Shown here: positions 25,235 through 27,307 of the stretch, in pieces
Layout: every line of letters begins with the position of its first letter
How positions within the stretch are numbered: position 1 is the first letter of the stretch
Assembly (NCBI GenBank): GCA_044892525.1
Contig: CM097885.1
Span: 5,024,001-5,088,000, forward strand
From: Schmidtea polychroa
Lineage: Eukaryota
Length of the DNA stretch: 64,000 nt
Direction of reading: 5' to 3'
Program-made: the position numbers and the translations under genes
The notes under the pieces: model-generated
Database searches by the model: none
Told to the model about the DNA's origin: nothing
What the model saw: the letters and a program-made list of their open reading frames with translations, nothing else

Positions 25235-27307
25235 AGTAGATGGATTGGGCACCGCTGGCACAGGGCACCGCTAGCACAGTACCCCCCCCCCCTCCCCCCG
25301 TCGGTAAGATTTTCAAAAATATTCTAAGTCTAAAAGTACATTTTTTTTCAAGGTCAAATTTAAACAAAGACATATGACTCATCAAGGTCATTGAAACAAA
25401 GACCATGAGTCATCCTATGACTCATAAAATTTTTCAAGGTCATTTAAACAAAGACCATGACTCATTCGATGACTCATCAAGGTCATTTTCAAGGTCATAT
25501 GACTCATAATATGACTCATCAAGGTAAAAAAAAATTTCTCAAGGTCATTTAAACAAAGACCATGACTCATCAAGGTCATTTTCAAGGTCATATGACTCAT
25601 AATATGACTCATCAAGGTCATTTTCAAGGTCATATGACTCATAGTATGACTCATTTGACCTTGGAAATTTTTTTTCAAGGTCATATGACTCATCCTATGA
25701 CTCATCAAGGTCATTTTCAAGGTCATATGACTCATAGTATGACTCATTTGACCTTGAAAATTTTTTTCAAGGTCATATGACTCATCCTATGACTCATCAA
25801 GGTCATTCTCAAGGTCATATGACTCATCCGATGACTCATCAAAATTTTCAAGGTCATTTTCAAGGTCATCTGAGTCATCCTATGACTCATCAAGGTCATT
25901 TTCAAGGTCACATGACTCATCCAAGGTCATTCCCAAGGTCATATGAGTCATCGCGATGACTCATCAAGGTCATTTTCAAGGTCATGTGACTCATAATATG
26001 ACTCATCAAGGTCAAAAAAAATTTCTCAAGGTCATTTAAACAAAGACCATGACTCATCAAGGTCATTTTCAAGGTCATGTGACTCATAATATGACTCATC
26101 AAGGTCATTTTCAAGGTCATATGACTCATAGTATGACTCATTTGACCTTGAAAAATTTTTTCAAGGTCATATGACTCATCCTATGACTCATCAAGGTCAT
26201 TCTCAAGGTCATATGACTCATCCGATGACCATCAAGGTCATTCTCAAGGTCATATGACTCATCCGATGACTCATCAAAATTTTCAAGGTCATTTTCAAGG
26301 TCATCTGAGTCATCCTATGACTCATCAAGGTCATTTTCAAGGTCACATGACTCATCCAAGGTCATTCCCAAGGTCATATGAGTCATCGCGATGACTCATC
26401 AAGGTCATATTATTATTTTTAAAAAATATTATTATTTTTATTATTATTTTTAAAAATATTATTATTTTATATTTAATTTTTTCAAAGTTCCCGCCAACGA
26501 AAATTAATAATCGATAGCTCATTTTAAAGCTCAATCCAAGACCTTTCGAATGAGCCATATATCTTATTATTATTATTATTATTATTATTATTATTATTAT
26601 TATTATTATTATTATTATTATTATTATTATTATTATTATTATTATTATTATTATTATTATTATTATTATTATTATTATTATTATTATTATTATTATTATT
26701 ATTATTATTATTATTATTATTATTATTATTATTATTATTATCATTATTATTATTAGTATTAATCTATATACACCGAGTCTATATACTCTGAGTCTATCCG
26801 ACAAAATATTTTGTCCCCCTATGGGTAATGCTCACAAGGGTACTGGTCACGCTCAACAAATCAACGAAACATACATTTATTTAAACAATAAAATAATGTA
26901 AAATTAACAAAGGTAAACTAAATATTGATGCACTTCTATTCGCAGCATTATTGTTAGAAATTGGTAACGTTGAATTGATTTTCAGATATTCTATTGATCC
27001 TTTGATTGTTTGAATTTCTCTTAATAATAATTCAATCTTTTTTAACAAATAATCATGCTTCTTATCAATAATCTTCATATTCTTTTTATTTTCAGTAATA
27101 GAGTTATTGAAAACCTCAATATGATCAATCAATTTAATTTTTATATTTTGTATATATTCAAATGTTAGTTCATAACTGTTTTCTAAATTCTCCAATCTTT
27201 GAGATATTCTTTTTCCTGGATGCTTTGACCATTTTGGTTTATCGAGAATATATAAAATATCCATCAACTTGGCTGTATTCGGACAAACACATATTGATTT
27301 ATTAAAA
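25235..27307 (+). repeat. Left TIR (about 2.07 kb)
   Basis: Reverse complement of 42206-43714, apart from extra tandem-repeat units and microsatellite length. Confidence 0.93.
25348..26407. promoter_or_regulatory. Subterminal array of AP-1 (TGA(C/G)TCA) and NR5A/ERR-type (CAAGGTCA) consensus sites
   Basis: Roughly 40 copies of each motif by hand count, interspersed with AAACAAAGAC. The regulatory function is inferred. Confidence 0.65.

Follow-up and report, generated by a model that had tools for sequence, protein, structure and literature searches.

A complete Polinton/Maverick element of 18,480 bp, located at positions 25235–43714 of a 64,000-nucleotide (nt) stretch of the Schmidtea polychroa genome (GenBank assembly GCA_044892525.1, contig CM097885.1, positions 5,024,001–5,088,000; hereafter the window, to which all coordinates refer), carries in both of its terminal inverted repeats (TIRs) a dense array of short words matching the sites of AP-1-type basic leucine zipper (bZIP) proteins and of monomer-binding nuclear receptors. 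The cores of these words stay constant while the spacers between them turn over, and comparison of repeat units and of element copies suggests that the cores are most probably binding sites selected in the lineage that propagates.

Ordered motif arrays with constant cores

The left array (25348–26407, forward strand; 1060 nt) contains 42 TGASTCA, of which 38 occur as the full ATGASTCAT, along with 45 receptor cores (42 forward YCAAGGTCA and three reverse CAAGGTCA) and five copies of AAACAAAGAC, in agreement with the roughly 40 copies of each motif that an initial annotation of this DNA had estimated. The right array (43073–43605, reverse strand; 533 nt) includes 19 TGASTCA (16 full-length), 20 CAAGGTCA and four AAACAAAGAC, the latter appearing as GTCTTTGTTT on the forward strand; as expected of an inverted repeat, all 20 CAAGGTCA lie on the opposite strand. 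In the 45,450 nt of the window outside 25201–43750, there are four TGASTCA and no CAAGGTCA. The three words (bZIP, receptor and AAACAAAGAC/GTCTTTGTTT) cover 74% of the bases of the left array and 67% of the right one, so that the TIR stretch, described initially as made almost entirely of motifs, is indeed motif-dense but only to about three quarters.

The same annotation had depicted the motifs as occurring in shuffled combinations. We find instead an ordered repeat with a basic period of 42 nt (about 20 copies in the left array, with higher-order periods of 93 and 134 according to Tandem Repeats Finder), in which two bZIP sites are followed by two receptor sites. With the commonest spacers, the unit reads bZIP–(5 nt)–bZIP–(1 nt)–receptor–(4 nt)–receptor–(2 nt), the start-to-start steps being 12, 8, 12 and 10; their sum of 42 nt corresponds to four helical turns by arithmetic alone. 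The composite 28-mer TGASTCATCAAGGTCATTYTCAAGGTCA, which comprises one bZIP and two receptor sites, is found 3,229 times genome-wide compared to none for its reversed control, and the window copy contains 16 such composites per 61 bZIP and 65 receptor cores. Given that the array is a tandem repeat, an excess of motifs over chance is trivially true, and the informative question is whether cores and spacers differ in conservation.

An unbiased count of 9-mers in the left array yielded TCAAGGTCA (38 copies), CAAGGTCAT (37) and ATGACTCAT (35) as the commonest words, whereas 10-mers running into the spacers reach at most 25 copies and 11-mers at most 18. Because the counts fall by the length of 11, the repeated 'atoms' appear to be 9–10 nt long, coinciding with the consensus sites. 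Likewise, information content drops from 2 bits to 0.3–1 bit directly outside A-TGASTCA-T and Y-CAAGGTCA-T. This profile was anchored on exact cores, with the count of near-misses as the control, and the left array contains one substituted receptor core and one bZIP core with a deletion (TGACCAT). In the flanks of the bZIP core, R occupies position −1 in 40 of 42 cases and T position +7 in all 42, with RTGASTCAY fitting 40 of the 42 sites; Y precedes all 42 forward CAAGGTCA (40/40 in the flank profile), and the seventh base is invariably T. Within the cores, variation is limited to the middle position of the bZIP site (37 C and 5 G), precisely where the consensus is degenerate.

The array is a property of the family rather than of this copy. 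Searches with the terminal 112 nt returned 1,039 first-look candidates in the 781-Mb assembly, 40 of which were scored and proved 97–100% identical. We examined 36 distinct TIR ends, 34 of them from other copies, after dropping two loci (L011 and L037) as duplicates. The array is present in 34/34 of the ends from other copies, with 11–41 TGASTCA and 11–32 forward CAAGGTCA, and the distance from the terminus to the block following the array ranges from 487 to 1268 nt among 26 ends. In the 27 type-A ends, the spacers between paired bZIP sites are diverse, with six or more frequent variants that disagree at most positions (CCT, 63; AGT, 51; CCG, 40; AAT, 34; CGCG, 20; ACT, 9), with identical cores on either side, a pattern that cannot be produced by homogenization of whole units.

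Conservation across copies was assessed by allele sharing in the proximal 330 nt of 28 ends, which were chosen only by their terminal 112 nt and aligned with MAFFT, leaving out columns with at least three gaps and columns in homopolymer runs. The 82 columns of bZIP and receptor cores contain 20 private and nine shared variants, whereas the 51 spacer columns contain 17 private and 29 shared ones (Fisher odds ratio 3.8, p = 0.009). Per column, shared variants are about 5-fold rarer in cores than in spacers (p = 2e-8), whereas private mutations are alike in both (p = 0.32). Private variants represent post-insertion decay, and shared variants represent change in lineages that kept copying. The conservation of motifs but not of spacers across copies, which the initial annotation had put forward as a check, is thus borne out in that shared variants are scarce in the cores and common in the spacers.

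The receptor core furthermore appears in at least three architectures and is not confined to the 42-nt unit. In subfamily B, it recurs in a 31-nt unit that combines a single bZIP site with two receptor sites, and all nine subfamily-B ends (9/9) have a second array made of receptor cores only, 5–8 in number and separated by T/A runs; everted pairs of the core flanking an A/T run also occur. Overall, several different factor sites are conserved as sites while their spacing and number vary, as would be expected of an enhancer located in a terminal repeat.

Candidate binding factors, related lineages and competing explanations

Both words, flanks included, are exact matches to published sites, as the AP-1 and NR5A/ERR assignments of the initial annotation implied. 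TGACTCA is the AP-1 consensus, and RTGACTCAY is reported as the high-affinity bZIP form, exemplified by yeast Gcn4 (PMC8805717). TCAAGGTCA is described as the canonical Esrrb/ERR element that is also bound by Nr5a2, for which the seventh base may reportedly be either T or C, the latter being preferred (PMC8451941, PMC10484738). In flatworms, the schistosome FTZ-F1 has been reported to bind the human SF-1 element in an electrophoretic mobility shift assay (PMC8673669). Among the 25 open reading frames (ORFs) of at least 70 amino acids (aa) in the element, there is no bZIP or zf-C4 domain at E ≤ 1 and no other sequence-specific DNA-binding domain besides the TATA-binding protein (TBP) and the integrase, making putative binding by host factors the best reading. 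That the binders are host bZIP and receptor factors appears, from these motif and domain comparisons, somewhat more probable than the opposite.

We propose that the subterminal kilobase of each TIR would be a cluster of short putative protein-binding sites kept by selection in the propagating lineage, with an AP-1-type bZIP dimer on RTGASTCAY, a monomer-binding nuclear receptor on YCAAGGTCA (either NR5A/FTZ-F1-like or another host receptor reading the TCA-extended half-site) and perhaps an HMG-box factor on AACAAAG. The array would then most likely act as an enhancer-like platform at both ends, raising transcription of the element where these factors are active and, secondarily, might open chromatin at the ends for replication. 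As a whole, a selected array of host-factor sites acting as an enhancer-like platform would be the best explanation of the sequence patterns, one that we consider evenly poised between right and wrong; transcriptional enhancement as the main output is a tentative suggestion, falling slightly short of an even call. An enhancer-like role is the most economical one because the array is large, is present at both ends and lies 113 nt off the terminus, which is held by separate 16-nt repeats. Nr5a2 and Esrrb are reported to bind their motif inside the short interspersed element (SINE) B1 (bioRxiv 10.1101/2022.05.17.492379). Planarian Polintons are described as silenced by SMEDWI-2 PIWI-interacting RNAs (piRNAs) and as gaining trimethylated histone H3 lysine 4 (H3K4me3) and RNA during differentiation (PMC8532177), as well as being enriched in the inactive B compartment (PMC10558129). 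As reported, these properties fit latent promoters dependent on cell state and argue against most insertions serving as host enhancers.

The window also contains pieces of other Polinton lineages that bear on the choice between explanations. The left end of a second lineage (60630–61150, forward strand) has its own AGTAG... terminus, an 18-nt repeat array, one ATGACTCAT and an inner-TIR block homologous to that of the main element. Its 24-nt terminus word is found 77 times in the genome (≤2 mismatches) versus 0 for the control, with inverted pairs 23.2 kb and 1.07 kb apart. The array begins about 100 nt from the terminus and consists of about 12 units of 18 nt, including eight TTAYRTAA (three of which still read TTACGTAA) and 12 AAYAAAG, compared to six TTAYRTAA in the rest of the window (45 kb). 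Many of the palindromes have the form TTACATAA or TTATGTAA, which decay of the CpG in TTACGTAA would produce, and the AACAAAGACATAT part of the repeat is common to the first unit of the main array. We take TTAYGTAA to be the PAR/E4BP4-type bZIP palindrome. A third lineage is represented by a right end (62292–62842, reverse strand), the terminus word of which occurs 13 times in the genome versus 0 for the control and forms inverted pairs at distances of 12.4 kb and 0.42 kb. This end carries three AAGTAGGTCAA words, presumably the A/T-extended half-site read by ROR/Rev-erb-type receptors, and all of them share with the CAAGGTCA cores of the main element their polarity towards the terminus; with three sites only, this lineage is weak evidence by itself. 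Between the two ends lie remnants of the capsid-region and protease genes (61389–62220, forward strand), 87% and 92% identical to 32902–33410 and 34849–35174, respectively. The terminus words at 60630 and 62842 differ from each other, and the two ends are not flanked by a matching target duplication, indicating that the piece is composite or rearranged. Finally, a gene-poor relative elsewhere in the genome (L193; G000:C1:133300-135800) has in common with the main element an 85-nt inner-TIR block (86% identity), and its array lies between two (TAA)n runs; a 77-nt piece of the window (63580–63656) is 97% identical to this locus. What these lineages share is thus the presence of a subterminal TIR array, the words in it being specific to each lineage. 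The initial annotation had spoken of Polinton TIRs in general, which holds for motif arrays as such but not for the particular words, as the other lineages in the window carry other motifs.

Core conservation implies that something binds the array but not what, and the cores could be iterons for packaging, replication or integration proteins of the element itself, the likeness to host consensus sites being coincidental. Adenoviruses, with their repeated packaging words beside the inverted terminal repeat (ITR), offer a precedent, and several ORFs of the element have no family match. Nevertheless, we consider this unlikely: iterons usually consist of one word at fixed spacing, whereas here there are at least three unrelated conserved words, one palindromic and one polar, the spacing and order of which differ between subfamilies, and such flexible grammar is a better fit to a cluster of host-factor sites. 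Moreover, apart from the TBP and the integrase, no fitting DNA-binding domain is present among the 25 ORFs, several of which are unassigned, and sister lineages with 87–92% identical capsid-region and protease genes carry other words, so that binder and site would have had to co-evolve repeatedly. Host factors might also bind the cores with replication as the output, the array being an origin-auxiliary region that aids protein-primed initiation in the manner of the NFI and Oct-1 sites of the adenovirus ITR. That an element with a protein-primed polymerase has the array at both ends, and that the array is retained in shorter derivatives with only 12–13 kb between its two copies, is compatible with such a role. 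However, auxiliary regions of the adenovirus type have few sites abutting the core origin, whereas this array starts 113 nt from the terminus, extends over 0.3–1.1 kb and holds 11–42 sites of each kind, far beyond the needs of an origin helper. Its length also differs between the two ends of one element (1241 versus 710 nt from the terminus to the post-array block in the window copy and 714 versus 535 nt in the copy bounded by L009 and L035), and the pair of 16-nt repeats at the terminus is the better candidate for origin recognition; a primarily replicative function would therefore be rather improbable.

The unstable length of the arrays (487–1268 nt), the unequal arms of single elements, the youth of the copies (97–100% identity over the terminal 112 nt) and the existence of motif-less tandem arrays elsewhere in the element and in a relative would all be accommodated by a neutral minisatellite expanding by slippage, with chance matches to consensus sites and cores that are uniform simply because the array is young. 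Youth or homogenization, however, would keep the spacers uniform as well, whereas the spacers are near saturation and the cores invariant; one receptor core occurs in three different unit types; and both cores match published high-affinity sites down to the flanks and degenerate positions, as reported in PMC8805717 and PMC8451941. We therefore regard neutrality as very unlikely. Hardly more probable is the more specific proposal of the initial annotation that the ends are sensors coupling the element to wound/JNK signalling and to an NR5A/ERR-defined cell type, each insertion being a strong enhancer on host genes. The identities of the motifs speak for it, and it is allowed by the piRNA repression of planarian Polintons and their reported gain of H3K4me3 and RNA in differentiation (PMC8532177), which leave room for activity dependent on cell state. 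Yet, AP-1-type sites answer many inputs besides wounding, and widespread co-option as enhancers is made less likely both by the neutral decay of insertions (see below) and by the reported enrichment of planarian Polintons in the inactive B compartment (PMC10558129).

Several observations weigh against the host-factor enhancer explanation itself. In 24 type-A insertions, the cores decay at 1.33% per base for the bZIP site (59 near-misses versus 496 intact) and 1.75% for the receptor site (77 versus 474), with mononucleotide shuffles giving about 13 and 8 chance matches at 0–1 mismatch, respectively, and the adjacent unique TIR block differs from the window copy by 1.23% (27/2,201 nt). Hence, cores in single insertions decay at the neutral rate and are not being conserved by the host. 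The initial annotation held that its idea would fail if motif positions mutated as freely as spacers; taken literally, this is what the insertions display (1.3–1.75% in cores versus 1.2% in unique TIR sequence), but such figures are mute on the active lineage, because post-insertion decay is expected of any transposon copy and says nothing on function there. Allele sharing and the differences between repeat units are not independent lines of evidence, and the allele-sharing test partly restates the spacer diversity; where a unit is deleted or duplicated, MAFFT aligns paralogous units, which would add shared variants to the spacers but not to the cores. Matching sequences to known motifs post hoc is permissive, nine ORFs of the element have no family assignment, so that an element-encoded binder of an unrecognized fold is possible, and the G+T-rich 68-nt array of L193 lacks all of these motifs. 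The TIR contains a single ORF, and the array lies downstream of it, with the nearest gap between ORFs about 1 kb away and no visible link to a promoter. As for the receptor, T at the seventh base is reported to favour Esrrb over Nr5a2 in mouse (PMC8451941), and ERR is reported missing from Schmidtea, a free-living flatworm, and from all parasitic flatworms analysed, with FTZ-F1, HR39 and NR4A being kept (PMC8363021); the 'ERR' half of the NR5A/ERR label may thus be inapplicable to a flatworm host.

Anatomy and gene content of the element

The element starts with AGTAG and ends with CTACT (5'-AG...CT-3' termini at 25235 and 43714), and the hexanucleotide GTTGTA that immediately precedes its first base (25229–25234) is repeated immediately after its last one (43715–43720) as the target-site duplication, which upholds the Polinton identity assigned initially. 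Together with the polymerase, the rve integrase and the adenovirus-type protease described below, the long TIRs, the AG...CT termini and the 6-bp duplication are those of Polintons/Mavericks. Arm alignments place the left TIR at 25235–27307 (forward strand, about 2.07 kb) and the right one at 42206–43714 (reverse strand, about 1.51 kb), the paired stretches being 25285–25674/43278–43667 (97% identity), 26230–26728/42752–43250 (100%) and 26597–27307/42206–42916 (100%). The right TIR is shorter than the left because its array is shorter. Right-arm positions 43069–43373 pair with 25672–25976, and the inner part of this stretch pairs also with 26230–26411, from which it follows that the left arm carries a higher-order duplication of the array. 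No single clean duplication offset accounts for the longer left array, as the best candidates (394, 487 and 435 nt) each explain about half of the columns.

Inward from the left terminus, 12 nt are followed by two 16-nt direct repeats of GGGCACCGCTRGCACA (25247–25279, forward strand; period 16, 2.1 copies, mirrored at 43670–43702), a C-rich tract, 47 nt of unique sequence and the array. The 16-nt repeats are a candidate recognition site for the integrase or replication proteins of the element, and the extra insert of subfamily B contains a related word in inverted orientation. Just inside the array, there is an A+T-rich 30-nt repeat (26407–26481, forward strand; 2.4 copies, mirrored at 42999–43073), an 82-nt unique block with the TTCCCGCCAA word (26482–26563, forward strand; mirrored at 42917–42998), a (TTA)66 microsatellite (26564–26761, forward strand; mirrored at 42752–42916) and a block conserved in other lineages. 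The TTCCCGCCAA word, which we take to be E2F-like, has been retained in both subfamilies (A and B), despite differences in the bases around it. The innermost part of the left TIR consists of most of an ORF of 168 codons reading towards the terminus (26881–27387, reverse strand), which encodes a product with a hydrophobic N-terminus and weak coiled-coil-type Pfam matches; an N-terminally cut copy is located at 42177–42632 (forward strand).

Among the internal genes, an ORF on the reverse strand (29843–30304) encodes a TBP domain (PF00352, E = 1.5e-15, 57 bits, cut-off 22.9), which matches 35 TBP chains among solved structures (best E = 2.3e-11). The match is confined to a single TBP repeat region, and the ORF overlaps by 17 nt with the one that follows it downstream on this strand (29356–29859), for which no family match was obtained. 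The remaining recognizable genes are on the forward strand. The ORF at 30335–31039 encodes a P-loop ATPase (Pox_A32, E = 0.012, and other P-loop families, all below the cut-off), which by its position might be the packaging ATPase, although the hits are weak. The integrase (31026–32183) combines an rve core (PF00665, E = 1.3e-5, 25.8 bits, below the cut-off of 32.6; phrog_8463 transposase, E = 1.7e-9) with a weak chromodomain. A (TAT)21 run at 31490–31553 is in frame with this ORF, where it would encode a stretch of 21 isoleucines in the rve core region. Judging by position, the 356-aa ORF at 32114–33184 (no family match in Pfam or PHROG) may encode the minor capsid protein, and, by position and size, the 427-aa ORF at 33479–34762 (no convincing match in Pfam or PHROG) the major one. 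The adenovirus-type (adenain-type) cysteine protease (34704–35141; PF00770, 26.4 bits, above the cut-off of 21.3) belongs to a family for which a search of the genome returned 2,157 candidates.

The DNA polymerase (37836–41654, forward strand) matches phrog_1907 (E = 1.4e-20), and its translation displays polymerase motifs (NNSLYGK and GDTDSFF); it yielded no match to Pfam PF03175 at E ≤ 0.01 and none in the PDB with phmmer. There are 19,813 polymerase candidates in the assembly, and 48/48 scored copies are 99–100% identical, without stops. In the non-coding stretch upstream of the gene, further tandem arrays are found at 36204–36340 (21–42 nt units), 36557–36836 (16–91) and 37048–37406 (192). 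The polymerase match spans 949 residues in L055–L068 and 950 in L052, and these loci have no post-array block within 1.5 kb of the polymerase. In the tails downstream of the polymerase of L052, L056 and L065, an ORF ending in a RING-type cysteine/histidine pattern, recognized by eye, occupies the place of the coiled-coil ORF in the TIR of the window copy. At the other end of the element, the 107-aa ORF at 27475–27798 (forward strand) has a weak match to the Bcl-2 family (PF00452, E = 0.0033, 18.4 bits, below the cut-off of 31.4); the Bcl-2-like and RING-pattern ORFs may be apoptosis-related cargo.

Ten of the TIR ends have no post-array block in the DNA examined. Nine of these make up subfamily B, which has an additional insert of some 0.5 kb, and in the tenth (L014), unrelated sequence interrupts the array. 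The unequal arms within single elements indicate either that arrays change after insertion, or that the ends are not copied from each other, or that the assembly mis-sizes arrays. A search of a collection of viral contigs returned no relatives of the polymerase. Scanning the same type of contigs for triple receptor words returned 181 matches at 124 loci, all with lengths that are multiples of three and resembling (CAAGGT)n-type repeats, and 0/124 loci combine the receptor word with a bZIP core at a distance of up to 3 nt. These matches are triplet-periodic and we take them to be coding sequence; the scan is uninformative.

Relation to other terminal-repeat systems and implications

The presence of host-factor sites in the terminal repeats of viruses and transposons is a known principle, and the Nr5a2/Esrrb motifs of SINE B1 are a close precedent. 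A full-text search, with most subscription journals outside its scope, retrieved no paper in which Polinton TIRs are connected to AP-1 or to a role as enhancers. The U3 regions of retroviruses and long terminal repeat retrotransposons contain tandemly duplicated blocks of host-factor sites, AP-1 among them. The Polinton arrays resemble U3 enhancers in the clustering of host-type sites within a terminal repeat, in tandem duplication with variable copy number and in fast turnover between lineages, but belong to a protein-primed double-stranded DNA element with inverted rather than direct repeats, have 11–42 sites per kind per end and adjoin no evident promoter. As in the SINEs B1 and Alu, studied in the context of mouse zygotic genome activation, the same receptor word (TCAAGGTCA/TCAAGGCCA) is spread by a mobile element; however, B1 has one motif per copy and its binding is demonstrated, whereas each end of the Polinton has dozens that are accompanied by bZIP sites and are putatively bound. 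Adenoviruses, the left end of which consists of an ITR with NFI and Oct-1 sites followed by an enhancer and packaging repeats, represent a related virus class (protein-primed polymerase and adenain-type protease) with similarly placed repeated words and, putatively in the Polinton, host-factor sites near the end. In adenovirus, however, the last 50 nt or so accommodate a small number of sites, and packaging repeats are found at one end only, whereas the Polinton array runs from nt 114 for up to about 1 kb at both ends. En/Spm, Ac and Mutator likewise have short words repeated many times in subterminal TIR sequence, but these are single words bound by their own transposases, in contrast to the three unrelated host-consensus words of the Polinton, for which no matching domain was found in the element.

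Three different sets of words occur within one 64-kb window, namely, AP-1-type sites with TCA-extended receptor sites, TTAYGTAA-type bZIP palindromes with AACAAAG, and AAGTAGGTCAA receptor sites. Polinton lineages might conceivably carry interchangeable 'factor-site cassettes' in their TIRs, each tuned to a different host cell state in the way that retroviral enhancers set tropism, although we regard this generalization as speculative and rather doubtful. Extrapolation from the 3,229 composite words and from the ratio of composites to cores in the window copy suggests that insertions of the main family alone would have distributed high-affinity sites over the chromosomes, on the order of ten thousand for bZIP factors and an equal number for receptors. 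If so, this load of sites could act as a mobile enhancer reservoir or as a sink for the factors in question. Thousands of near-identical high-affinity sites also have to be reckoned with in any study of motif enrichment or accessibility in this genome. To our knowledge, next to nothing is known of what activates Polintons/Mavericks in animal cells, and dense arrays of sites for named factor classes, in a family with dozens of intact copies, provide a concrete and testable hypothesis on their activation. If this hypothesis is true, the TIR arrays would be the Polinton counterpart of retroviral U3 enhancers, and the turnover of arrays between lineages would amount to a change in tropism.

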